From the NCBI GenBank assembly GCA_014435945.1, contig GCA_014435945.1_4088.1: a stretch of DNA of 64,000 bases. One strand, written 5' to 3'. Position 1 is the stretch's first letter. Each line of letters begins with the position of its first letter. Below are positions 1-14,558 of this stretch, piece after piece. The translations under genes and the position numbers were made by a program. This DNA comes from a phage. The notes below the pieces were generated by a model. The model searched no databases and was not told the origin of the DNA. It saw nothing but the letters and a program-made list of their open reading frames with translations.

Positions 1-207
1 GAAGCAGATATCCAGGCGGTTCAACGGCTTAACGATGAGTTAACGCCGGATGACTTAAGCAAGATTGTAGATCCTCAATTCTACGAAGATATCCACGACA
101 CCGCGTTAAGCGTCGAGGATGTACTAGATAAGCACTTTATTGATACTGATTTGCAGGTTTACGGTCGTAAAAACTTTATCACTATTCACGACATTTACAA
201 TAATTAA
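1..207 (+). CDS. hypothetical protein, 5'-truncated at window edge
   Basis: Frame-1 open from nt 1 to TAA 205-207; no start in window; early promoter follows. Confidence 0.5.
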   Translation, partial: EADIQAVQRLNDELTPDDLSKIVDPQFYEDIHDTALSVEDVLDKHFIDTDLQVYGRKNFITIHDIYNN

Positions 208-210
208 GTA

Positions 211-272
211 TTGACAAAGTATCTTAGTACTGTATAATAGTTTACATCGAGTGAGGGGAAACGGTTCCCCTC
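211..272 (+). promoter_or_regulatory. sigma70-like early promoter (class A) plus 5' leader stem-loop
   Basis: TTGACA 211-216, 16-nt spacer, TGtATAAT with hexamer 233-238; leader hairpin GAGGGGAA-ACGG-TTCCCCTC 253-272. Confidence 0.75.
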
Positions 273-295
273 CTAACAAAGAGAGAGAAATAAAA

Positions 296-478
296 ATGGC
301 TAAATGCACTATCTGTAATAAAGAAATAGTATTAGTTCCAAGTGCCCGTGAACGTGCCGCTCGGTTCGGTGGCAAAGCGTCAGACTATACAAAAATGTTT
401 ACTGCCCATGCAGCTTGCCAGGTAGCAAAACGTTCACAAGAAAGCGTAGAATTAATGCGTAAACTTTCCAAAAAATAA
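296..478 (+). CDS. small hypothetical protein (60 aa), Cys/His-containing
   Basis: ATG 296 after A-rich leader; track ORF 251-478 begins at GTG inside the leader hairpin, so internal ATG preferred. Confidence 0.6.
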   Translation: MAKCTICNKEIVLVPSARERAARFGGKASDYTKMFTAHAACQVAKRSQESVELMRKLSKK

Positions 479-481
479 GTA

Positions 482-542
482 TTGACAAAGTATCTTAGTA
501 CTGTATAATAGTTTACATCAAGTGAGGGGAATGGTTCCCCTC
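482..542 (+). promoter_or_regulatory. sigma70-like early promoter (class A) plus 5' leader stem-loop
   Basis: TTGACA 482-487, TATAAT 504-509 with TG upstream; near-identical copy of 211-238; hairpin 524-542. Confidence 0.75.
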
Positions 543-565
543 CTAACTAAAAGAGAGAAATAAAA

Positions 566-889
566 ATGGCTATGATCCTTGCCCAGAAAGTGGAACTGAA
601 AATTGTAACCTCCTTTGACATTAATGTTAATCGGTGGACTGATTCACACGGCAATACTTACCACTCTTGCTACGTGTCTGCGTTAATTGGCGACCGCTGG
701 GAAGACCTGGGACATGAAACCTTTACATACGGTTACGGTACACAAGGCGAATACACGGGCTTGGAGATCATTAAAGAAACCGTTATAGGTTTCAACCCGA
801 AAGAAAAAGTTATTCACCGCATCGAGGAAGAGATCAACAAAGAAATAACAGTTCGCTACCACGATGTAAAACGTAAGAAAGACATGTAA
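566..889 (+). CDS. hypothetical protein (107 aa)
   Basis: ORF directly downstream of promoter and leader; ATG 566. Confidence 0.7.
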   Translation: MAMILAQKVELKIVTSFDINVNRWTDSHGNTYHSCYVSALIGDRWEDLGHETFTYGYGTQGEYTGLEIIKETVIGFNPKEKVIHRIEEEINKEITVRYHDVKRKKDM

Positions 890-911
890 TAGAATCCATT
901 TAAAGTACTAT

Positions 912-940
912 TTGACATTGCCCAGATAGTACTTTATAAT
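912..940 (+). promoter_or_regulatory. sigma70-like promoter
   Basis: TTGACA 912-917, 17-nt spacer, TATAAT 935-940. Confidence 0.65.
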
Positions 941-984
941 AGACTCTAACTTGTAGTACTAACTTAACTAATAGGATGTATACC

Positions 985-1380
985 ATGATTACTAAATTCT
1001 ACGCTACCCGTGAAGCTGCCCGTATTGTTGCACGCGAGGAAGGAGCAGCATTTAAAGACATGGGCAAAGATGCACCGAAAGGTCAACGCTGGGCCGTACA
1101 GTTCAAAGAAATCTCTGATATTGTGAATTCACCTGAGCCAGTACTAACAGCAGCAGAACTAAAACGAGCGGATATGCTGGCGGCAATACTTGACGCACAA
1201 GATGAATTTATCGCTGATTCTGATATCAAAGTACAGGTAAACCATACCGCTTGGACTCACGCGGATCACCTGGCAAACCTTAAGCGTCCAAGTGAACTGA
1301 TTCGCAACCAGAAAGAGATCCGACATGATCGTAAGGGTAATCGTGTAACAGTATACAGTAAACGCCGCCAGGTTATCTAA
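985..1380 (+). CDS. hypothetical protein (131 aa)
   Basis: ATG 985 with AGGA 973-976 eight nt upstream; track ORF starts at 976 where RBS spacing is poor. Confidence 0.6.
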   Translation: MITKFYATREAARIVAREEGAAFKDMGKDAPKGQRWAVQFKEISDIVNSPEPVLTAAELKRADMLAAILDAQDEFIADSDIKVQVNHTAWTHADHLANLKRPSELIRNQKEIRHDRKGNRVTVYSKRRQVI

Positions 1381-1402
1381 TAACTTGCAGTACTAACAAC
1401 AC

Positions 1403-1428
1403 GGCGGGATCAGTTCCCGCCTTTTTTA
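1403..1428 (+). terminator. rho-independent terminator
   Basis: GGCGGGA-tcagt-TCCCGCC stem-loop followed by TTTTTT. Confidence 0.7.
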
Positions 1429-1441
1429 TAGGACAAACAAA

Positions 1442-1696
1442 ATGATTAAGGTTCAACTATATAAAGATAACATCTTACGGGTACACTATAAAGCACCGAA
1501 GAGAATCATCACAAAGGCCGTACAGCTTGCTAATGAGTTTATTAATGGTAACCTATTACCTAGGAAGTTAAGCAACGGGAAACTGCGTGTAATCGACGTG
1601 GACACTAACAACAGGATAGTAATCGAGAACACAGGAAAGATAAACCTTTATGAGCATCAACAATACAATAAGAAAATAAAACTAATATCACGTTGA
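1442..1696 (+). CDS. hypothetical protein (84 aa)
   Basis: ATG 1442 with AGGA 7 nt upstream. Confidence 0.6.
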   Translation: MIKVQLYKDNILRVHYKAPKRIITKAVQLANEFINGNLLPRKLSNGKLRVIDVDTNNRIVIENTGKINLYEHQQYNKKIKLISR

Positions 1697-1721
1697 CAGT
1701 ACTCAATTGTTTTAGTACTAT
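1693..1721 (+). promoter_or_regulatory. sigma70-like promoter (class C)
   Basis: TTGACA 1693-1698, 17-nt spacer, TACTAT 1716-1721; same module repeated at 1969 and 13931. Confidence 0.6.
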
Positions 1722-1749
1722 GTACACATACCAACACGGGAGAAACAAA

Positions 1750-1968
1750 ATGAAATTATCTAAAATCGAAAAGAAAACTATTGATGAAGCAGTTAAGCAC
1801 GGTTATACCTTTCGTAATGATTCACATTTTACCAATTTTCAACAAGGGTATCGTACTATTAAAAAACTAATTGACAAAGGTTTATTAGTTGAAGTCAATA
1901 ACGGTAACGGTATCGAGTATCAACCAACACAGGACGCATTTTATTTTAAGAAATATAATATTATCTAA
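1750..1968 (+). CDS. small hypothetical protein (72 aa)
   Basis: ATG 1750 (codon 20 of track ORF 1693-1968) after GGGAG; upstream part of track ORF is promoter sequence. Confidence 0.6.
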   Translation: MKLSKIEKKTIDEAVKHGYTFRNDSHFTNFQQGYRTIKKLIDKGLLVEVNNGNGIEYQPTQDAFYFKKYNII

Positions 1969-1997
1969 TTGACAGTACTCAAATGTTTTAGTACTAT
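1969..1997 (+). promoter_or_regulatory. sigma70-like promoter (class C)
   Basis: TTGACA 1969-1974, 17-nt spacer, TACTAT 1992-1997; duplicate of 1693-1721. Confidence 0.6.
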
Positions 1998-2025
1998 ATG
2001 TACATACCAACACGGGGAAAACAAA

Positions 2026-2268
2026 ATGATTACTTTAGAAAAACGTATCAAAGAAACTACATCGCTGGTGGAACTGTTAACAGTACTGAAATGTAAAACA
2101 ACACCATTCAGCACGCCGGACTTTATTAATATGGTTGATGTTAATGGTCGCTATCGCATCACGGTCGAACAAGGAGCGGCGAAAGTATTCAGTACTAAAA
2201 ACACGAAGGAAGTGATCCACGCCGTTAATGTTAAAAAAGTAGTTGCCATTGATAGTAAAGTACTGTAA
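2026..2268 (+). CDS. small hypothetical protein (80 aa)
   Basis: ATG 2026 (codon 20 of track ORF 1969-2268) after GGGGAAAACAAA leader. Confidence 0.6.
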   Translation: MITLEKRIKETTSLVELLTVLKCKTTPFSTPDFINMVDVNGRYRITVEQGAAKVFSTKNTKEVIHAVNVKKVVAIDSKVL

Positions 2269-2271
2269 TAT
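2243..2271 (+). promoter_or_regulatory. candidate sigma70-like promoter
   Basis: TTGCCA 2243-2248, 17-nt spacer, TGTAATAT at 2264-2271. Confidence 0.4.
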
Positions 2272-2299
2272 AGTTTCATTAACTCAAGGAGAACATGCA

Positions 2300-2884
2300 A
2301 TGCGTAATTATACTAAATTCATCCGTACACTGTCAGAAATGGAAACCAACAAAGAGATCCTTTCAGCTTGTCGGTTAGCTGACCTGGAGATCATCGGTGC
2401 TGGTTCTTCCCGTATAGTTTTCGCTTTAAATGATCGGTTAGTGATTAAGGTCGCGAATTGTGATGCGGGTGTAGAACAAAATGAAACTGAATGTATAGTA
2501 TGGAATTTTTTAGACTATGACCGCCCTCAGTTGAAACAGTACTTTGCAAAGGTGCATATGCATTTATGCGATCCTGATAATATGTTTATCGTTATGGATC
2601 GGTTGAGTACTGCAAGCAAAGGCAGTGTGAAGCACGTAAACGCGTGCAATGAATTAAAGTACAATATTAAACGTAATGCAATCGAACGCCAGCACCGCTT
2701 TGCTGATGCACTACAACACGTTGATGATACATTATCAACACTAACGATAAGAGATATCAGAAAACAGAATATCGGCCAGGATCGTAATGGACTTATTAAA
2801 GTACTTGATTACGGTTTAACCAGCAATATCTGGAATCAGTACTATAAAAAGCGTGATGTGGCAGCAAGTAAGGTAACACGATAA
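2300..2884 (+). CDS. minimal Ser/Thr protein kinase-like protein (194 aa)
   Basis: Gly-rich loop IIGAGSSRIVF, Lys in LVIKVA, catalytic-loop-like RDIRKQN, DYG (DFG-like) 19 residues later; AAGGAG 8 nt before ATG 2300. Confidence 0.55.
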   Translation: MRNYTKFIRTLSEMETNKEILSACRLADLEIIGAGSSRIVFALNDRLVIKVANCDAGVEQNETECIVWNFLDYDRPQLKQYFAKVHMHLCDPDNMFIVMDRLSTASKGSVKHVNACNELKYNIKRNAIERQHRFADALQHVDDTLSTLTIRDIRKQNIGQDRNGLIKVLDYGLTSNIWNQYYKKRDVAASKVTR

Positions 2885-2895
2885 AAAAGATTAAA

Positions 2896-2929
2896 AAAGG
2901 GATTGACTCCGGTCAGTCCCTTTGCTATT
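2896..2929 (+). terminator. hairpin terminator, part of a duplicated intergenic module
   Basis: 12-bp stem AAAGGGATTGAC / GTCAGTCCCTTT with 4-nt loop, A-run before and T-rich tail after; conserved box follows at 2958-2980. Confidence 0.6.
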
Positions 2930-3025
2930 ATATATCCATTGAGAGATAACTCACTGACCCATAGGGTGCGGAAGTGTATCTATTATATAAGTATTCAGTA
3001 CTGAAAACTATTTGATAAAAAGTAC

Positions 3026-3086
3026 TTGCAAACTATCTCAATGAGCGTATAATGTTTTATATCGAGAGGGGGAAATGGTTCTCCCT
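3026..3086 (+). promoter_or_regulatory. sigma70-like early promoter (class B) plus leader stem-loop
   Basis: TTGCAA 3026-3031, 16-nt spacer, TATAAT 3048-3053; G-rich leader hairpin 3067-3086. Confidence 0.7.
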
Positions 3087-3108
3087 GGTACTAAAAGGAA
3101 TCAAGACG

Positions 3109-3330
3109 ATGACTACTATGACCTGCGTTCACGCTTCAAATCTTCTGAATGATGCAGCATTTAAAGCAGGTGAAGAATATCAATGCTATCGGGATGAAAA
3201 TAAAAAAGTTTTCGTCGTTGATGCTAACGGTTTCCATATTGAATTACAATCCGGCTTCACTGGTGTTGATGGTAAATCAGTATGGGGCGTTAATGATGAT
3301 AATGGTCTTTATCACTTTATCCGTAATTAA
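3109..3330 (+). CDS. small hypothetical protein (73 aa)
   Basis: ATG 3109 after AAAAGGAA; the MFYIERGKWF extension in the track ORF is translated promoter/leader. Confidence 0.65.
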   Translation: MTTMTCVHASNLLNDAAFKAGEEYQCYRDENKKVFVVDANGFHIELQSGFTGVDGKSVWGVNDDNGLYHFIRN

Positions 3331-3333
3331 GTA

Positions 3334-3392
3334 TTGACAAAGTATCTCAGTACTGTATAATAGTTTACATCAAGGGGAGAATAGTTCTCCCC
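3334..3392 (+). promoter_or_regulatory. sigma70-like early promoter (class A) plus leader stem-loop
   Basis: TTGACA 3334-3339, TGtATAAT with hexamer 3356-3361; hairpin GGGGAGAA-tag-TTCTCCCC 3374-3392. Confidence 0.75.
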
Positions 3393-3413
3393 AATACTAA
3401 AAGGAATAAAATC

Positions 3414-3821
3414 ATGACTACTACTAATCAAGCTCGGTCCATCGCCAACGATAAAAATCATGCTGCAATGGTCGCTGGTTACATTGAAGCTATGCAATTC
3501 AGTACTGTACACAATGAGAACGGCGATTACCTGGAAGATTATGAATTATCAGAGCAAGCCCATCAAGCGGCAGTGATTGCATGTTCACGTTTCCTTGCTG
3601 TACATGGTGAAGATATGGAAACAGTACAAAAACACCATAATCCTGATTATACTTATAGTCATGCAGGTCATGATCTCTTTCTTACTCGCGAAGGTCACGG
3701 CACTGGTTTTTGGGATCGTGATATCGGTCACTATGATGATATATTCACTAAGTACTGCGAAGAAATCAACGTTTGCGATCCCTATGTAGGCGATGATAAT
3801 CTAATCTATATGGGCGAATAA
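3414..3821 (+). CDS. hypothetical protein (135 aa)
   Basis: ATG 3414 after AAAAGGAA RBS. Confidence 0.7.
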   Translation: MTTTNQARSIANDKNHAAMVAGYIEAMQFSTVHNENGDYLEDYELSEQAHQAAVIACSRFLAVHGEDMETVQKHHNPDYTYSHAGHDLFLTREGHGTGFWDRDIGHYDDIFTKYCEEINVCDPYVGDDNLIYMGE

Positions 3822-3827
3822 AAGTAT

Positions 3828-3886
3828 TTGACAAAGTATATTAGTACTGTATAATAGTTTACATCAAGGGGAGAATAGTTCTCCCC
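3828..3886 (+). promoter_or_regulatory. sigma70-like early promoter (class A) plus leader stem-loop
   Basis: TTGACA 3828-3833, TATAAT 3850-3855; hairpin 3868-3886. Confidence 0.75.
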
Positions 3887-3910
3887 ACACCAATAAAAGG
3901 AAACAAAATT

Positions 3911-4183
3911 ATGTCCAGCTACTCCGCTACTATGATCATTAAAGATATGAACGGTAATCCTACTTCTGCTGGTGGATCATTTGGAAACATTAATTTAGAT
4001 GGTCGGTTATCCATGCAATCAGCCATCGATGCAGCGAAAGAAGTTTTTAAGAATGAATGTACTGTTAGTAAGCTGGATTATATGGGATTCGCTATCGAGA
4101 AAACTAATCGTTTTGTGAACTACAAAAATCCACTGATGATTGATACTAACCTGAAAGCTAACGAAGTGGAATACTTATTATGA
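3911..4183 (+). CDS. hypothetical protein (90 aa)
   Basis: ATG 3911 after AAAAGGAA RBS. Confidence 0.7.
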   Translation: MSSYSATMIIKDMNGNPTSAGGSFGNINLDGRLSMQSAIDAAKEVFKNECTVSKLDYMGFAIEKTNRFVNYKNPLMIDTNLKANEVEYLL

Positions 4184-4371
4184 CAGTTGAAGAAGTTAAA
4201 AAAGTACTGGCAGTACTACGCTATCATAATCATTGCAAGGTGAAGAATGATCCTGATTATCTCGATTCATCCCTGGAAGAGGATACACTACAAGCAATAA
4301 GCCATATGCAAAAAATGCTTAAGCGTATGACCGAAAAGAATAGGCCGGACTATATCGGAAATAAAATTTAA
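4180..4371 (+). CDS. small hypothetical protein (63 aa)
   Basis: ATGA start/stop overlap with upstream gene. Confidence 0.55.
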   Translation: MTVEEVKKVLAVLRYHNHCKVKNDPDYLDSSLEEDTLQAISHMQKMLKRMTEKNRPDYIGNKI

Positions 4372-4378
4372 AAAGTAC

Positions 4379-4440
4379 TTGCATTGTAGTTAGATTAACG
4401 TATAATGTTTTATATCGAGAGGGGGAAATGGTTTCCCCTC
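4379..4440 (+). promoter_or_regulatory. sigma70-like early promoter (class B) plus leader stem-loop
   Basis: TTGCAT 4379-4384, 16-nt spacer, TATAAT 4401-4406; bulged G-rich hairpin 4419-4440. Confidence 0.7.
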
Positions 4441-4458
4441 AAGTCCAGGAGATACACA

Positions 4459-4722
4459 ATGAACACTATCGAAATCACTATCAATGCACACGTATACGAC
4501 AACGTAGTACTGCAAACTACTATGACCGCCAATGATACCAGTACTTTGCGGAATACTGTTATTAGTGCTGTATGTGCCGCTATCGGTGATGTCGCCCTGG
4601 AAAATGCAAAACACGTAAACGATGGTTTCACTATGTGCAAACGTGATAACGCAAAACATATCATCGTGGAAGGTTACGGCGGTGTAGAATTTAATGTTTA
4701 TATGAAAAAAGTACTTGCATAA
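4459..4722 (+). CDS. hypothetical protein (87 aa)
   Basis: ATG 4459 after CAGGAG; track ORF 4405 begins inside the leader. Confidence 0.65.
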   Translation: MNTIEITINAHVYDNVVLQTTMTANDTSTLRNTVISAVCAAIGDVALENAKHVNDGFTMCKRDNAKHIIVEGYGGVEFNVYMKKVLA

Positions 4723-4771
4723 TAACTAAAACAAAGTATAATGTTTTGCATAGGGGGAGATATCCTCCCCC
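4715..4771 (+). promoter_or_regulatory. sigma70-like early promoter (class B) plus leader stem-loop
   Basis: TTGCAT 4715-4720, TATAAT 4737-4742; hairpin GGGGGAG-atatc-CTCCCCC 4753-4771. Confidence 0.7.
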
Positions 4772-4789
4772 ACTAAAAGGAGTAATAAA

Positions 4790-5014
4790 ATGGCTAACTT
4801 TGATGAACTGATGCGGGAAGTAGCTAACCTGGCAGAAGAGAAGAAATCATTCGATTCTATCTATAACACCGCTCACCGTGATTCAGTACTGGCATGTAAC
4901 CAGGATCAAAAAGATGAACTAATCGCCACCTATCATGAAGCATGGAAGTACTACCGACAATGGGAGAAAGAAGAAAGTGAGTCTACCATTGACGGCCTCA
5001 ATAATCTAATCTAA
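4790..5014 (+). CDS. small hypothetical protein (74 aa)
   Basis: ATG 4790 after AAAAGGAG RBS. Confidence 0.7.
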   Translation: MANFDELMREVANLAEEKKSFDSIYNTAHRDSVLACNQDQKDELIATYHEAWKYYRQWEKEESESTIDGLNNLI

Positions 5015-5033
5015 AAGTTTTATTTCAGTACTA

Positions 5034-5063
5034 TTGACATAGCTTGATAGTACTGATGTAATA
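5034..5063 (+). promoter_or_regulatory. candidate sigma70-like promoter
   Basis: TTGACA 5034-5039 with imperfect -10 (TGTAAT/TAATAA) 17-19 nt downstream. Confidence 0.4.
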
Positions 5064-5090
5064 ACTTTACTAACTACAAGGGGAAACATA

Positions 5091-5348
5091 ATGGATCAAT
5101 TCACACAATATCGGGTAAATCCTCAAGCTATGGCCTACGTAGAAGACCATAAAACGTTACCAGTACTGCAACCAGTTAAAGGCCATATCTATCGTGCAAT
5201 GTCGTGGTGTACGGCCCAGGATGGCTATAAAACCGTAGCCGTGGGTATGTATTGCGGTAATGGTGAATGGTTTGATCCAAATAATCCGGTAGCCATTGAC
5301 AGTACTGAAAAAATGAAATGGGCCGACTACATCGAAGATATTTCATAA
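5091..5348 (+). CDS. hypothetical protein (85 aa)
   Basis: ATG 5091 after AAGGGGAAA. Confidence 0.65.
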   Translation: MDQFTQYRVNPQAMAYVEDHKTLPVLQPVKGHIYRAMSWCTAQDGYKTVAVGMYCGNGEWFDPNNPVAIDSTEKMKWADYIEDIS

Positions 5349-5355
5349 AAACTAT

Positions 5356-5416
5356 TTGACAGTACTAACCAGTAATGTATAATGTTTTACATAGAGCGGG
5401 GGAATAGTTCTCCCGC
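5356..5416 (+). promoter_or_regulatory. sigma70-like early promoter plus leader stem-loop
   Basis: TTGACA 5356-5361, 16-nt spacer, TATAAT 5378-5383; hairpin GCGGGGGAA-tag-TTCTCCCGC 5396-5416. Confidence 0.7.
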
Positions 5417-5438
5417 CAATAGTTTGGAGTAAAACATT

Positions 5439-5639
5439 ATGTCTATCGCTATCGCCCTGGTTGAAGTACTGAAAGAAGCTAAAGCCAACCTTATCGATGT
5501 ACAGATTAAGGAATTGCAAAACGGCTTAATCGGCTGTACTTGTACCGCTGGTGGAGCGGCAGACTATCGAGAACACGAATCACTCGAATCACTGGTTCGG
5601 TATCTTACCATGATCGTTGATGATTGGAGAATCATCTAA
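5439..5639 (+). CDS. small hypothetical protein (66 aa)
   Basis: ATG 5439 after TGGAG. Confidence 0.65.
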   Translation: MSIAIALVEVLKEAKANLIDVQIKELQNGLIGCTCTAGGAADYREHESLESLVRYLTMIVDDWRII

Positions 5640-5654
5640 CAAAAAAGAATAAAA

Positions 5655-5688
5655 AAAGGGATTGACTCAGGTCAGTCCCTTTGCTATT
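5655..5688 (+). terminator. hairpin terminator, second copy of the duplicated intergenic module
   Basis: Same 12-bp stem as 2896-2923 with loop tcag; conserved box at 5712-5735. Confidence 0.6.
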
Positions 5689-5804
5689 ATATACGCATAG
5701 ACAAAAACTAGCCCACAGGGTGCATAAGTGTATCCAAAATATATAGTTAATAACGGTGAGTAACTATCTGCTGGTGGAGTGAAAACTATTAATAAAAAAA
5801 AGTA

Positions 5805-5833
5805 TTGACAAAGTATATCAGTACTGCAATAAT
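5805..5833 (+). promoter_or_regulatory. sigma70-like early promoter (class A variant)
   Basis: TTGACA 5805-5810, 17-nt spacer, TGcAATAAT at 5825-5833. Confidence 0.6.
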
Positions 5834-5886
5834 GTATCTCGTAGGGCGGCAATGGTGCGACGGCCCACAAAGTTAGGAGATTCAAA

Positions 5887-6219
5887 ATGACTACTTCAAT
5901 CGCTATCGTTAAAGCTTTCATCCGTACTAATGTTTCCTCTGTATTCATCGACGGCCTCGACCGTAACGTAGAATACTCAATCATTATCGCACAAACGGCA
6001 AACGGTTCTCGGTACATCCTGAATGATAGTGAAGCAAATCACTACTACTTCACTAAAGCCACTGGCTTTAAACGCATCGATGCTGATGTAGTATACGCTA
6101 AGATGAATAAGCTGGTAGACAAGATTAACGCGAAAGGTACTATCGATTTACAGTACTGGACCGAAACCGATCCAGAATATGGATCTCACCGCTACCTGAA
6201 TCCAGGTATTAAAATGTAA
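5887..6219 (+). CDS. hypothetical protein (110 aa)
   Basis: ATG 5887 after AGGAG. Confidence 0.7.
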   Translation: MTTSIAIVKAFIRTNVSSVFIDGLDRNVEYSIIIAQTANGSRYILNDSEANHYYFTKATGFKRIDADVVYAKMNKLVDKINAKGTIDLQYWTETDPEYGSHRYLNPGIKM

Positions 6220-6226
6220 AAAGTAC

Positions 6227-6289
6227 TTGCATAGTACTTAGATTCATGTATAATGTTTTACATAGAGAGGGGGAAATGGTTCTCCCTCC
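6227..6289 (+). promoter_or_regulatory. sigma70-like early promoter (class B) plus leader stem-loop
   Basis: TTGCAT 6227-6232, 16-nt spacer, TATAAT 6249-6254; G-rich hairpin about 6267-6289. Confidence 0.7.
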
Positions 6290-6308
6290 TAAATTAAGGA
6301 GTTTTATC

Positions 6309-6710
6309 ATGACCTTCTCAATCACTTCCTTCGCTGACGTTTTAGTACTGGCTCGGACTTTTGGTAAAGATGCACTGGAGTACGCTGTAAGTAATGGCAC
6401 TATCCAACCGGAACAGTGCCGCATCATTGGAAACTGCAAACGTTGGGCGGTATCCAATACTATTGCACTGGAAAACTTCAACGATGGCAACAATGAATAT
6501 TCTGTTGATGTAGTATTCGAAGCCGTAGACCTGGGCGGTATCTATAACACTAACCTGAATGATGTGCGTATCGTTCGCACTGGCTTCGGTGCTTATGATG
6601 TATCTATCCGTGAAGCTATGGACAAGGGATACATTAGCAAGGACTTACTTGCTCACATCATGCAGCTATGGACGGAACGTAACGAAGCACGTACTATCTT
6701 AGGGCTGTAA
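6309..6710 (+). CDS. hypothetical protein (133 aa)
   Basis: ATG 6309 after AAGGAG; track ORF 6246 begins inside promoter/leader. Confidence 0.65.
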   Translation: MTFSITSFADVLVLARTFGKDALEYAVSNGTIQPEQCRIIGNCKRWAVSNTIALENFNDGNNEYSVDVVFEAVDLGGIYNTNLNDVRIVRTGFGAYDVSIREAMDKGYISKDLLAHIMQLWTERNEARTILGL

Positions 6711-6734
6711 GCAATACACATCACCAAACATCAT

Positions 6735-6754
6735 AGGCCGCTCTCTAGCGGCCT
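6735..6754 (+). other. stem-loop without U-tract
   Basis: GGCCGC-tctcta-GCGGCC palindrome after stop of 6309-6710. Confidence 0.35.
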
Positions 6755-6778
6755 TAACTATATCAGGAGTACATACAC

Positions 6779-6988
6779 ATGATCTATACAGTATACAACG
6801 TTCTAGGCACTATTGCAGGCGTACATGATAACGTCGATAGTGCTATGCGTACAGTACTGCAACAGGTTCCACTAAAGCCTAAGACCATTAAGCAGATGAC
6901 AGCACGACTAACCAGGGCGACGGCTGGCGTGGAAGTATGGCAGGACTATGGGGATACACAGATAATCGTAAGCGTAACGAAGGATTAA
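6779..6988 (+). CDS. small hypothetical protein (69 aa)
   Basis: ATG 6779 after CAGGAG. Confidence 0.65.
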   Translation: MIYTVYNVLGTIAGVHDNVDSAMRTVLQQVPLKPKTIKQMTARLTRATAGVEVWQDYGDTQIIVSVTKD

Positions 6989-7134
6989 TGCGTAAAGGGA
7001 TCTAGTACTGATTCAGAAAAAAGTCAAGGCGTTTTTAAAATTATGCGTTAAAAAAATGCATAGGTAATCCCTTGACTTTTTTGAAATAAAAGGGATTGGA
7101 CTATGGCAAAATGCGTAGGGGGCTAAAGGGCGGG
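6987..7134 (+). repeat. iteron-like direct repeats in a 250-bp intergenic region
   Basis: ATGCGTA(A/G)(A/G)GGG at about 6988 and 7109 with a variant near 7044; TAAAGGG core recurs near 6994, 7088, 7124, 7153. Confidence 0.4.
7017..7082 (+). other. 13-bp perfect inverted repeat (long hairpin, terminator-like)
   Basis: AAAAAAGTCAAGG 7017-7029 pairs with CCTTGACTTTTTT 7070-7082 across a 40-nt loop. Confidence 0.45.
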
Positions 7135-7179
7135 TAACCTTAGCGACTTCGATAAAGGGGTATTACTTATAAAATGTTA

Positions 7180-7207
7180 TTGACTTTTTATATGAATCGT
7201 ATATTAT
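7180..7207 (+). promoter_or_regulatory. candidate sigma70-like promoter for the F1 array
   Basis: TTGACT 7180-7185, 16-nt spacer, TATTAT 7202-7207. Confidence 0.45.
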
Positions 7208-7237
7208 TGGATTGATATTATTTTTAATGGAGTCCCT

Positions 7238-7435
7238 ATGCGTATTTTAACTCAAGAAGAGCACAACCACACACTCATATCCAACATGGCATATATCCTA
7301 CATATGTCACATATCCGTGGTATTGCATATAAGCGTGAATTGGTTATGAAACTTTTCATAGGAACTAACTATCAAGAAAAGTATATCGAACTATACTTAC
7401 AAGAATTACGAAGGGACATAAAAGGTAGACTATGA
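7238..7435 (+). CDS. F1 small paralog protein (65 aa)
   Basis: F1 member; C-terminal motif FIGTNYQEKYIELYL; first gene of tandem array. Confidence 0.65.
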   Translation: MRILTQEEHNHTLISNMAYILHMSHIRGIAYKRELVMKLFIGTNYQEKYIELYLQELRRDIKGRL

Positions 7436-7632
7436 AAATGCGTATTTTAAATAAAGAAGATTATCAAGAACTGTTACGTAAAAACATGGTAAAGATTTAT
7501 AACACAGACACAAACTTAGAACGAATTGAGTTATACCTTTTGATTACATTGGGAACAAGCTATCAGGGAAGATGGGTGATTCAATATATGGATGCATTGA
7601 AAAATGAAATATTATCCACGAGGAAACAATGA
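7432..7632 (+). CDS. F1 small paralog protein
   Basis: F1 motif LGTSYQGRWV; ATGA overlap with upstream stop. Confidence 0.65.
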   Translation: MKMRILNKEDYQELLRKNMVKIYNTDTNLERIELYLLITLGTSYQGRWVIQYMDALKNEILSTRKQ

Positions 7633-7838
7633 AAACTATAACACGAACCCAATCATACGGTCTTATCTTGAGATACATGGACTTAATGTTGGATATCAGA
7701 AAAGACCTTCCTAAAACTGCAATTGAAGTTGCAAGAGCAGAGATCCGCATGTTGGCTGTACTGAACACAAACCATCAGGAAGAGTATGTTGACGATTGGA
7801 TTCGATTTTTAATAGAAGATATTAAGAGGAAACTATGA
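7629..7838 (+). CDS. F1 small paralog protein
   Basis: F1 motif LNTNHQEEYV; ATGA overlap. Confidence 0.65.
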   Translation: MKTITRTQSYGLILRYMDLMLDIRKDLPKTAIEVARAEIRMLAVLNTNHQEEYVDDWIRFLIEDIKRKL

Positions 7839-8047
7839 TTTTTTTAACACCAGAAGAATATAAGATACGTTTTGTTTCTGTCCAGAATAAAATCTTAATT
7901 ATATACAATTCAAATGCAGACCTTAACTTATCAAGGGTATTAGAAAAAGATTTACTTATGGGTGCATTTTTGGATACAGACTTTCAGGTGTATTATGTAG
8001 GGGAATACTTAATTGCACTCCAGAATTACATTAAGAGTAAACTATGA
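7835..8047 (+). CDS. F1 small paralog protein
   Basis: F1 motif FLDTDFQVYYV; close paralog of 8044-8256. Confidence 0.65.
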   Translation: MIFLTPEEYKIRFVSVQNKILIIYNSNADLNLSRVLEKDLLMGAFLDTDFQVYYVGEYLIALQNYIKSKL

Positions 8048-14235: not shown

Positions 14236-14558
14236 TGTGTAAGTTCAATTGTATTGTACGTAAGAATTCATGTTACATTGTAGTAGCTGATTTTAATACA
14301 GGTTCTGGGTTGAAGATATTTGAGTACAGAAAATGCAATAATTCTTTTCATTGGAAATTGGGTGCAAGAAAAACAAAAACAATTTCAGTACCGAATTTAT
14401 GTTCTATCTCTGAAGAAGAAGAGTTTCAGTACTTGTTAGTACATGATGATTCTTTAGGATTTACATTCGAAGACATGAAGGAAGTACAAAAGCAGATGAT
14501 TGCACATTGTCATCTTCCAAAGAATTTTGTTCAACGCGTATGTGAATTCTACATATAA
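14235..14558 (+). CDS. F2 paralog protein
   Basis: F2 module EEEFQYLLVHD; TAATG overlap; GGTGGAGA RBS (track 14208). Confidence 0.6.
   Translation: MCKFNCIVRKNSCYIVVADFNTGSGLKIFEYRKCNNSFHWKLGARKTKTISVPNLCSISEEEEFQYLLVHDDSLGFTFEDMKEVQKQMIAHCHLPKNFVQRVCEFYI

Follow-up and report, generated by a model that had tools for sequence, protein, structure and literature searches.

Positions 200-6300 of the 64,000-nucleotide (nt) stretch of phage DNA analysed here (contig GCA_014435945.1_4088.1 of assembly GCA_014435945.1; the whole stretch is called the window below) contain ten repeated intergenic units, in which a near-consensus sigma70 promoter is followed by a short G-rich hairpin in the predicted leader of a small early gene, decayed in one copy. 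We attribute these units to the promoter-early stem-loop (PeSL) type of cassette; what is new in them is that the hairpin is located in the leader and that the units lie in the terminal repeat of jumbo phages. Once homologous units of eight phage lineages were compared, the covariation between the two arms of the hairpin proved real and significant, which places its pairing under selection. The composite reading that we favour, though with considerable reservation, is that of PeSL-type immediate-early cassettes in a terminal repeat, the hairpin stabilising or insulating the message and the repeats acting as recombination substrates. The specific function given to the hairpin in this reading, the stabilisation or insulation of short messages, is put forward more tentatively and may well turn out to be wrong.

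The units were located by direct reading, by a consensus promoter scan, by fuzzy matching to two class sequences and by a hairpin scan, and all four approaches agree. On the + strand of the interval there are 15 sigma70-type promoters, 10 of which fall into two near-identical sequence classes (Table 1). Reading, pattern scans and hairpin scans thus bear out the initial annotation, in which at least ten promoters with extended identity had been divided into classes A and B. Class A (aagtaTTGACAaagtatcttagtactgTATAATagtttacatc) is present at 206, 477, 3329 and 3823 with 0-5 mismatches over 43 nt, and class B (aaagtacTTGCAt/a ... gTATAATgttttayatmga) at 3020, 4373, 4709 and 6221. At 5350 a hybrid unit combines the -10 region and leader of class B with a TTGACA -35 box, and the unit at 5798 is class-A-like. 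Six promoters match the consensus at 12 of 12 positions and the others at 10-11 of 12, with spacers of 16-17 nt, and the sequence 5' of the promoters is A-rich (aaaaagta). Five more promoters in the interval, at 912, 1693, 1969, 2243 and 5034, have no hairpin; those at 1693 and 1969 are near-identical repeats of each other.

Table 1. Promoter-hairpin units and accompanying elements in the first part of the window
Feature	Position	Strand	Elements, sequence and predicted folding
Inner (right-hand) part of direct terminal repeat	1..7133	no strand	vB_Ec-M-J annotation and alignment
Four hairpin-less early promoters	912-940, 1693-1721, 1969-1997, 2243-2271 (region 905..2302)	+	
Canonical intrinsic terminator	1403..1429	+	GGCGGGA tcagt TCCCGCC then TTTTTTAT
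U1, class A	206..298	+	TTGACA 211-216, TATAAT 233-238; Shine-Dalgarno; ATG 296
U1 hairpin	253-272	+	GAGGGGAA acgg TTCCCCTC; leader -14.6 kcal/mol, z = -2.6
U2, class A	477..568	+	promoter 482-509; ATG 566
U2 hairpin	524-542	+	GAGGGGAA tgg TTCCCCTC; leader -13.9 kcal/mol
Boundary element copy 1	2896..2990	+	just 5' of U3; -35 box in hairpin (AAAGGGATTGACTCCGGTCAGTCCCTTT)
U3, class B	3020..3111	+	TTGCAA 3026 to TATAAT 3053; ATG 3109
U3 hairpin	3067-3086	+	AGGGGGAA atgg TTCTCCCT; internal G.U pair
U4, class A	3329..3416	+	promoter 3334-3361; ATG 3414
U4 hairpin	3374-3392	+	GGGGAGAA tag TTCTCCCC; -13.3 kcal/mol, z = -3.3
U5, class A	3823..3913	+	promoter 3828-3855; ATG 3911
U5 hairpin	3868-3886	+	GGGGAGAA tag TTCTCCCC
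U6, class B	4373..4461	+	TTGCAT 4379-4384, TATAAT 4401-4406; ATG 4459
U6 hairpin	4419-4440	+	GAGGGGGAA atgg TTTCCCCTC
U7, class B	4709..4792	+	TTGCAT 4715-4720, TATAAT 4737-4742; ATG 4790
U7 hairpin	4753-4771	+	GGGGGAG atatc CTCCCCC; -15.0 kcal/mol
Hairpin-less early promoter	5034..5062	+	TTGACA, 17-nt spacer, TGTAAT; 5' of ATG 5091; sequence reading
U8, hybrid	5350..5441	+	promoter 5356-5383; ATG 5439
U8 hairpin	5396-5416	+	GCGGGGGAA tag TTCTCCCGC; -16 kcal/mol, z = -3.2
Boundary element copy 2	5655..5750	+	just 5' of U9
U9, class-A-like	5798..5889	+	TTGACA 5805 to (TG)CAATAAT 5833; ATG 5887
U9 decayed hairpin	~5841-5868	+	GGGCGGCA atgg TGCGACGGCCC; -9 kcal/mol, z = +0.24
U10, class B	6221..6311	+	TTGCAT 6227-6232, TATAAT 6249-6254; ATG 6309
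U10 hairpin	6267-6288	+	GAGGGGGAA atgg TTCTCCCTC; -15.9 kcal/mol

Within an intergenic gap of about 90 nt, each unit follows the order upstream stop codon, sigma70 promoter, start region, hairpin, spacer and start codon. The start region is conserved (..tttACATmra), and the A of its CA, 8 nt past the -10 box, is the predicted transcription start. The nine intact hairpins, stable at -11 to -16 kcal/mol, are all on the + strand and begin 10-14 nt past the -10 box, leaving 18-24 nt between their end and the start codon. For a start placed 8 nt past the -10 box, the hairpin would begin at about +3 to +7, and the predicted unpaired 5' overhang is 1-6 nt depending on the unit and the assumed start, most often about 5. 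The hairpins have 7-9 bp, GC-rich at the base and AU-rich towards the top, and purines prevail in the 5' arm; an A-rich single-stranded spacer with the Shine-Dalgarno sequence lies between hairpin and start codon. Folded as RNA from predicted start to ATG, the nine leaders gave energies of -12.1 to -16 kcal/mol and z-scores, determined against dinucleotide shuffles, of -0.9 to -3.4. The initial annotation had placed such a hairpin after each of the promoters. This holds for the nine units just described, but the hairpin of U9 is decayed and the five additional promoters carry none. U9 can be recognised as a decayed version of a GGGCGGCA/TGCCGCYC hairpin, since intact homologues read GGGCGGCA atag TGCCGCTC in phages muut, PHB05 and A73 and GGCGGCA atgg TGCCGCC in nepoznato.

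The units also account for artefacts in gene prediction. The open reading frames (ORFs) starting at 3052 (U3) and 4405 (U6) use an ATG within TATAATG and thereby acquire the N-terminal extension MFYIERGKWF, which is spurious because this ATG lies 5' of the predicted transcription start of its own promoter. The extensions had been noted before under this one sequence; a third ORF, at 6246 (U10), is a similar artefact and reads MYNVLHREGE. If the reading of the units holds, their recognition clears annotations of spurious extensions such as MFYIERGKWF and also shows, in new jumbo phage sequences, where the early-gene array lies and how far the terminal repeat extends.

With the 92-nt unit as query, 493 places in 68 phage records were matched. 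Beyond the closest relatives of the window, these comprise Klebsiella RaK2-like phages, Salmonella phage Munch and Erwinia phage Hallingskeid, and further the unrelated 140-150-kb phages of the Stephanstirmvirinae (muut, PHB05, nepoznato) and Vequintavirinae (A73), the latter with an identical copy of the U4 promoter-hairpin module. A pattern scan of IMG/VR returned only relatives of the same phage groups and nothing further. In total, the same layout with different but complementary stems is present in seven other lineages of large enterobacterial myoviruses. The stems are very different between copies, as in GGGGATACA/TGTATCCCT, GGGAATGAA/TTCATTCCC, GGGCGGCA/TGCCGCTC, AGGAGGT/ACCTCCT and GGGGCAA/TTGCCCC, and despite this divergence the position and the polarity of the hairpin are kept. 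Among 57 distinct hairpins the modal start is 12 nt past the -10 box, with stems of 7-9 bp and loops of 3-5 nt, and most hairpins end 18-24 nt ahead of the ATG. The association with promoters was quantified in the early regions of Asteriusvirus, RaK2, Munch, Hallingskeid, muut/PHB05, nepoznato and A73: about 45% of the distinct strong sigma70-type promoters are followed by a hairpin of -11 kcal/mol or lower at +4 to +43, versus 5% for the background of 40-nt windows taken from the same DNA.

Covariation was scored on a gap-free alignment of 21 distinct hairpins with 3-nt loops; a MAFFT alignment of units with unequal loop lengths was dropped, as it put the stems out of register. In the gap-free set, 93% of the cells are paired versus 74.5% in shuffles, and changes on both sides are seen in 8 of 9 pairs, with 33 doubly changed cells. 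The score was matched by none of 500 shuffles and became far lower when the 3' partner was slid by 1-3 columns. RNAalifold found compensatory change at 7 of 8 predicted pairs, and shuffling the arms between units gave 78% pairing versus the 99% observed. This alignment and scoring is one of the checks that the initial annotation had proposed, and its central observation, arms that differ yet stay complementary, is confirmed both by the nine hairpins of the window and by the eight-lineage comparison. Its interpretation is partly supported: the step from compensatory change to selection holds across the eight lineages, but within the window the cases are few and some of them are swaps of whole modules.

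The pairing might also be a relic without present function, which spread together with one ancestral promoter unit and was homogenised by duplication and gene conversion. Visible swaps of whole modules between units, the decay of the U9 copy with retention of its gene and the absence of a hairpin at five promoters would all agree with this. Hitch-hiking does not, however, explain why eight lineages whose stems have almost fully diverged have kept pairing, position and polarity, and we regard a mere relic as decidedly improbable.

The properties of the stem fit an RNA element of the 5' leader. Of 47 distinct hairpins, 41 have a 5' arm rich in purines. In helices with at least seven Watson-Crick pairs and one internal mismatch, this mismatch was G.T or T.G in eight cases, corresponding to G.U in the sense RNA, and A.C in none. 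The count replaced a symmetric tally (G.T 10 versus A.C 7) that had been inflated by spurious helix extensions. A strand-specific purine arm and mismatches limited to G.T are better accommodated by a transcribed element than by a symmetric DNA site. An element acting at the DNA level, i.e. a cruciform- or hairpin-forming site or a palindromic operator used in recombination or bound by a dimeric repressor over +6 to +27, would draw on the coincidence of the units with recombination junctions, on an RB49 crossover that was mapped within the loop of a stem-loop (PMC2839356) and on a location just 3' of the start that suits a roadblock repressor. It appears improbable to us nevertheless. The half-sites change jointly and many stems occur per genome, which independent half-site binding does not predict; strict purine-arm-first polarity with G.T and never A.C is unexpected for a symmetric duplex site; and the hairpin-less repeats at 1693 and 1969 are also indel junctions, so that recombination needs no hairpin. 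The operator palindrome in particular was rejected for the covariation of its arms, the strand polarity and the many different stems per genome.

Transcription termination was considered next to these possibilities, as an attenuator or terminator that damps transcription from upstream promoters, such that each gene is driven mainly by its own. This is the function proposed for T4-type PeSL stem-loops, one of which, a G-run/C-run stem-loop of RB49/phi1, lowered lacZ expression to roughly the same extent as the rrnB T1 terminator (PMC2839356); the stems found here are likewise G-rich and then C-rich, and in the array strong promoters of one orientation follow each other densely in tandem. A hairpin 3' of its own predicted start would, however, damp its own transcript equally. 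The 8 nt 3' of the stem are A-rich and contain on average 1.8 T and at most 3 T (47 distinct hairpins). The absence of a U-tract means that the leader hairpins are not intrinsic terminators, and this assignment was rejected. The consensus scan accordingly made a terminator call at 1403-1421 and none for the leader hairpins, and the region possesses this canonical terminator as well as the boundary hairpins at 2896 and 5655 where termination is evidently wanted. We therefore consider attenuation unlikely, though it is the alternative to which we would give most room. Two further roles were dropped: processing by RNase III, for which stems of just 7-9 bp are too short, and capture of the Shine-Dalgarno sequence by the pyrimidine-rich 3' arm when the 5' arm is absent, for which the alternative pairings were weak (-0.5 to -6 kcal/mol).

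The hairpin could alternatively be a recognition tag for a trans-acting factor of phage or host, in shutoff, protection or antitermination, comparable to lambda boxB/N, to T4 RegB or to a translational repressor. One structural element at a fixed distance from the start of dozens of co-regulated immediate-early transcripts would resemble the tag of a regulon, and the shape is conserved: the base is GC-rich, and 43 of 47 hairpins are closed by an A-U pair. The loop sequences, on the other hand, vary without constraint, also within a single genome (tag, tgg, atgg, acgg, atatc, atga, aaac, cta), which sets them apart from the boxB loop of a lambda-type nut site, and the stems differ widely inside single genomes such as that of RaK2. 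No boxA-like motif (CGCTCTTA-like) was present in 1-7200, and an Rfam 15 scan of 1-8000 at E <= 1 gave no match overlapping a unit. A tag of this kind is thus unlikely. The same low weight is given to its broadest form, a 'self' tag that several unrelated families of large virulent enterobacterial phages would have in common on their immediate-early transcripts. Such a tag would be recognised by its shape through a conserved factor of host or phage, for instance an RNase, a shutoff nuclease or a pathway linked to RppH/RNase E, would allow the messages of the terminal repeat to be spared or shut off together in host takeover and, moving with the promoter-gene cassette, would make a new gene join the regulon at once. 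The one sub-threshold Rfam match, a bglG/LicT element at 6964-7100 (+) with 29.5 bits (gathering score 80, E = 0.034), is most likely due to chance.

A third type of leader follows some early promoters of the compared phages and has a hairpin with a loop of 13-14 nt (GACGGGG ... CCCCGTT). It is conserved across Asteriusvirus, Justusliebigvirus and Vequintavirinae, with copies at about 782 in locus L001, 7582 in L002, 5098 in L005, 1686 in L006 and 7910 in L012 and at about 3720 and 14174 in vB_Ec-M-J (L013), and it has no copy in the window.

The identity of the window places the units in a defined part of the genome. Over bases 1-6400 the window shares 95-97% identity with Asteriusvirus jumbo coliphages (vB_Ec-M-J, Ecwhy_1, G17 and fEgEco12, with 121Q more distant), by which the window is assigned to an Asteriusvirus jumbo coliphage of the 121Q/PBECO4/G17 group; the annotated genes of this region all encode small hypothetical proteins on a single strand. 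In vB_Ec-M-J a direct terminal repeat is annotated at 1-21525, and base 1 of the window aligns with position 14393 of that genome, so that the end of the repeat is expected near base 7133 of the window. Repeats of 20-21.5 kb have been reported for fEgEco12, from PhageTerm and restriction digests, and for Sharanji. The promoter-hairpin family accordingly sits in the inner third of a terminal repeat of about 21 kb, with all copies inside. In the first 30 kb of vB_Ec-M-J, 49 of 53 strong promoters are within the repeat, and the hairpin accompanies 28 of these and none outside; a hairpin scan of the remaining 57 kb of the 64-kb window revealed no comparable promoter-hairpin pair.

Gene organisation switches at the expected repeat end (about 7133 in the window, 21525 in vB_Ec-M-J). 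Within the repeat nearly all genes are provided with a promoter of their own in a spacer of about 90 nt, all directed inward from the genome end. Past it the small genes form long operon-like runs, and in vB_Ec-M-J they overlap or abut and the 90-nt spacers are gone. Strong host-type promoters, densely arrayed and facing inward on the DNA that enters first, recall the pre-early region of T5 and the early region of T7. The terminal repeat of T5 constitutes its pre-early (first-step-transfer) region, which enters first and carries small host-takeover genes under very strong sigma70 promoters. The likeness to T5 and T7 lies in strong promoters whose conservation reaches into the initially transcribed region and, for T5, in a long direct terminal repeat that enters first; T5 early promoters are not known to be followed by a covarying leader hairpin. 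Among the genes of the repeat, that at 2300-2884 (+) is annotated as a serine/threonine protein kinase in the relatives ph0011, fEgEco12, Turkey3 and Munch and has homologues in the early regions of RaK2, Munch and Hallingskeid, and upstream parts of the relatives' repeat carry genes for a DksA-like zinc-finger protein and a GNAT acetyltransferase. The kinase, DksA-like and GNAT genes are likely to serve in host takeover.

Strong promoters of the host type also bear on a possible relation to phage N4, whose early promoters are extruded in single-stranded form and used by a phage RNA polymerase; here a second start just 3' of the hairpin would be expected. Stems of 7-9 bp, often with 3-nt loops and a central purine, superficially recall N4 early promoters. 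Published descriptions of the group report no virion or single-subunit polymerase and give only RpoD-like and gp55-like sigma factors working with host RNA polymerase. The loops and stems are moreover not conserved in sequence, in contrast to those of N4 promoters, and each hairpin follows a perfect sigma70 promoter at a constant distance. We give promoters of the N4 type next to no chance.

Comparison with close relatives showed that genes are gained and lost between units. Phage 121Q is without the genes between U1 and U2 (296-478), U4 and U5 (3414-3821) and U6 and U7 (4459-4722) and has one extra gene with U9-like units on both sides. Salmonella phage SD-2_S15 lacks the gene between the hairpin-less promoters 1693 and 1969 as well as the gene between U4 and U5, and the latter is also missing from Turkey3. 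At least five distinct indels in these three phages have their junctions inside units. At every indel the flanking alignment blocks overlap by 43-100 nt in the relative, which equals one unit and is what recombination between direct repeats predicts. The hairpin itself takes part in exchange: the gene at 4459 is preceded by GAGGGGGAAatggTTTCCCCTC here and by the GCGGGGGAAtagTTCTCCCGC module of the 5396 unit in its G17 ortholog, which shows that whole hairpin modules were exchanged between units.

Several early proteins have homologues in unrelated lineages. The 60-residue protein of gene 296-478 is 93% identical to one in Justusliebigvirus PHB05, and positions 231-558 of the window, comprising this gene and both flanking units, are 89% identical to PHB05 DNA. 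The coding part is nearly identical, and the flanking hairpins differ yet pair. This gene, common to PHB05, is polymorphic within Asteriusvirus. Judged by these alignments, the units are recombination breakpoints for gene cassettes, including one shared between unrelated phages. If true, this extends the idea of mobile regulatory cassettes from T4-like phages to jumbo, phi92-, phAPEC8- and rV5-like phages, and an early gene shared together with both units at about 89% DNA identity between a 350-kb and a 148-kb phage bears on the trade of small host-takeover and anti-defence genes among phages.

Indels at promoter-hairpin cassettes have a precedent in the PeSLs of the T4-like phages RB49/phi1, PST/T4 and nt-1/KVP40 (Arbiol et al. 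2010, PMC2839356; Comeau et al. 2014, PMC4122927). PeSLs are associated with indels and were proposed as vehicles of horizontal transfer. Their stem-loop has been found in five positions (5' of the -35 box, over it, between the boxes, over the -10 box and from the -10 box to the start), all preceding the start site, and was read, and partly tested, as a terminator (PMC2839356, PMC4122927). The units described here resemble PeSLs as repeated intergenic elements of about 90-100 nt, in which a stop codon, an AT-rich stretch and a near-consensus sigma70 early promoter are followed by a stable stem-loop, typically a G-run and then a C-run, and by Shine-Dalgarno sequence and start codon. They likewise separate small genes whose function is unknown, where the genome is most variable (hyperplastic), coincide with insertions, deletions and replacements among close relatives, and show apparent gene movement between phages. 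They differ in that the hairpin is always 10-14 nt past the -10 box, inside the predicted transcript and without U-tract, in their confinement to the 21-kb terminal repeat, and in their hosts, which are jumbo Asteriusvirus phages and their relatives and phi92-, phAPEC8- and rV5-like phages, not T4-like ones. The resemblance to PeSLs (PMC2839356, PMC4122927), the confinement to the terminal repeat and the cassette breakpoints had all escaped the initial annotation. In the literature on Asteriusvirus, RaK2, CBB, PA5oct, rV5, Sharanji and fEgEco12 the leader hairpin is not described.

For the function of a hairpin within the transcript, other systems offer parallels. A 5'-terminal stem-loop of the ompA type reportedly stabilises mRNA, a result credited to Emory, Bouvet and Belasco in 1992. 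Stabilisation of this type involves a hairpin within about 2-4 nt of the 5' end and resistance to RNase E. The present leaders share with it a short stable hairpin near the 5' end of the mRNA and 5' of the ribosome-binding site, and structure matters there rather than sequence, which matches the covariation seen here; the predicted overhang of 1-6 nt, most often about 5, compares with about 2-4 nt in the ompA type. Hairpins between co-transcribed genes are also known from REP/BIME elements and from the RNase III (R) sites of the T7 early operon, and like these the present ones could block 3' exonucleases after processing and set the stability of individual segments. The stems of 7-9 bp are in this case too short for RNase III, and the hairpins are, in distinction to both, tied to a promoter at fixed spacing.

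In the mechanism that we propose, the near-consensus sigma70 promoter would be read by unmodified host RNA polymerase, starting presumably at the A of the conserved CA. The hairpin would be transcribed as the 5'-proximal structure of each early mRNA, after about 1-6 unpaired nt, and would become intercistronic in read-through transcripts. It would most likely buffer the very short mRNAs against decay by RNase E and exonucleases, and would also keep the ribosome-binding site clear of the upstream context, such that a cassette would express well wherever it had landed. Finally, the repeats of about 90 nt would be substrates for homologous recombination, by which small early genes could be shuffled within and between phage genomes. 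If this is true, a covarying hairpin at a fixed position of the transcript provides a testable hypothesis for the stability and translatability of short immediate-early messages.

Several points weigh against this proposal. The hairpins used for covariation were chosen for folding, which introduces an ascertainment bias, although the enrichment figure is free of it; duplication or gene conversion connects many of the copies, whose counts are therefore not those of independent events; and the G.T cases are mostly variants of one core (GGGGGAA/TTCTCCC), which makes the mismatch test a weak one. Recombination at the repeats could be a passive effect of repetition and not a selected function. Most leaders are predicted to have 3-6 unpaired 5' nt, more than the roughly 2-4 nt that ompA-type stabilisers tolerate, and classical protection of the 5' end may therefore be weak. 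Five promoters of the array are hairpin-less, and the hairpin of U9 is decayed in a form that is conserved among relatives, from which it follows that the hairpin is not essential for every gene. Taken together, the long overhang, the hairpin-less promoters and the decayed U9 weaken a simple model of ompA-type protection. A literature search found no transcriptome or promoter study of Asteriusvirus.

Apart from the units, the region contains two copies of a second repeated structure, here called the boundary element (Table 1). Its consensus begins with a terminator-like hairpin that includes a -35 box (AAAGGGrTTGACTnnGGTCAGyCCCTTTTG), after which comes TATTAT, and a variable stretch of about 25 nt separates this from the invariant box CCCAY-AGGGTGC...TGTATCTAT; in copy 1, TATTAT lies 3' of the hairpin and precedes the conserved CCCATAGGGTGC box. 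The hairpin is annotated as an ARNOLD terminator in G17. The sequence of the element is conserved across Asteriusvirus, RaK2, Munch and Hallingskeid, and a match to an Rfam family was not obtained. Copies are located at about 3459, 10343, 14001, 17285 and 20040 in vB_Ec-M-J, at about 9847 in locus L010 and at about 2698 and 17562 in L011, and RaK2 (L004) has at least nine on both strands. Most of the Asteriusvirus elements (5 of 7 in vB_Ec-M-J) lie about 115-215 nt 5' of a promoter-hairpin unit, as if they marked the boundaries of transcription blocks. The element could represent a gene for a small RNA or a site of protein binding.

Finally, the hexamer family (C)AGTACT(G) is the most over-represented one in the window. 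AGTACT is present in 203 copies, versus about 21 expected from base composition (9.5-fold over), and CAGTAC is 13.8-fold over-represented. The motif is distributed over coding and non-coding DNA and is also part of the promoter regions, in the spacer of class A and just 5' of the class B -35 box. It has zero copies in the 8-12 kb and 16-20 kb bins, which suggests that these are mosaic or foreign segments. (C)AGTACT(G) is frequent also in the RaK2 and Hallingskeid loci.

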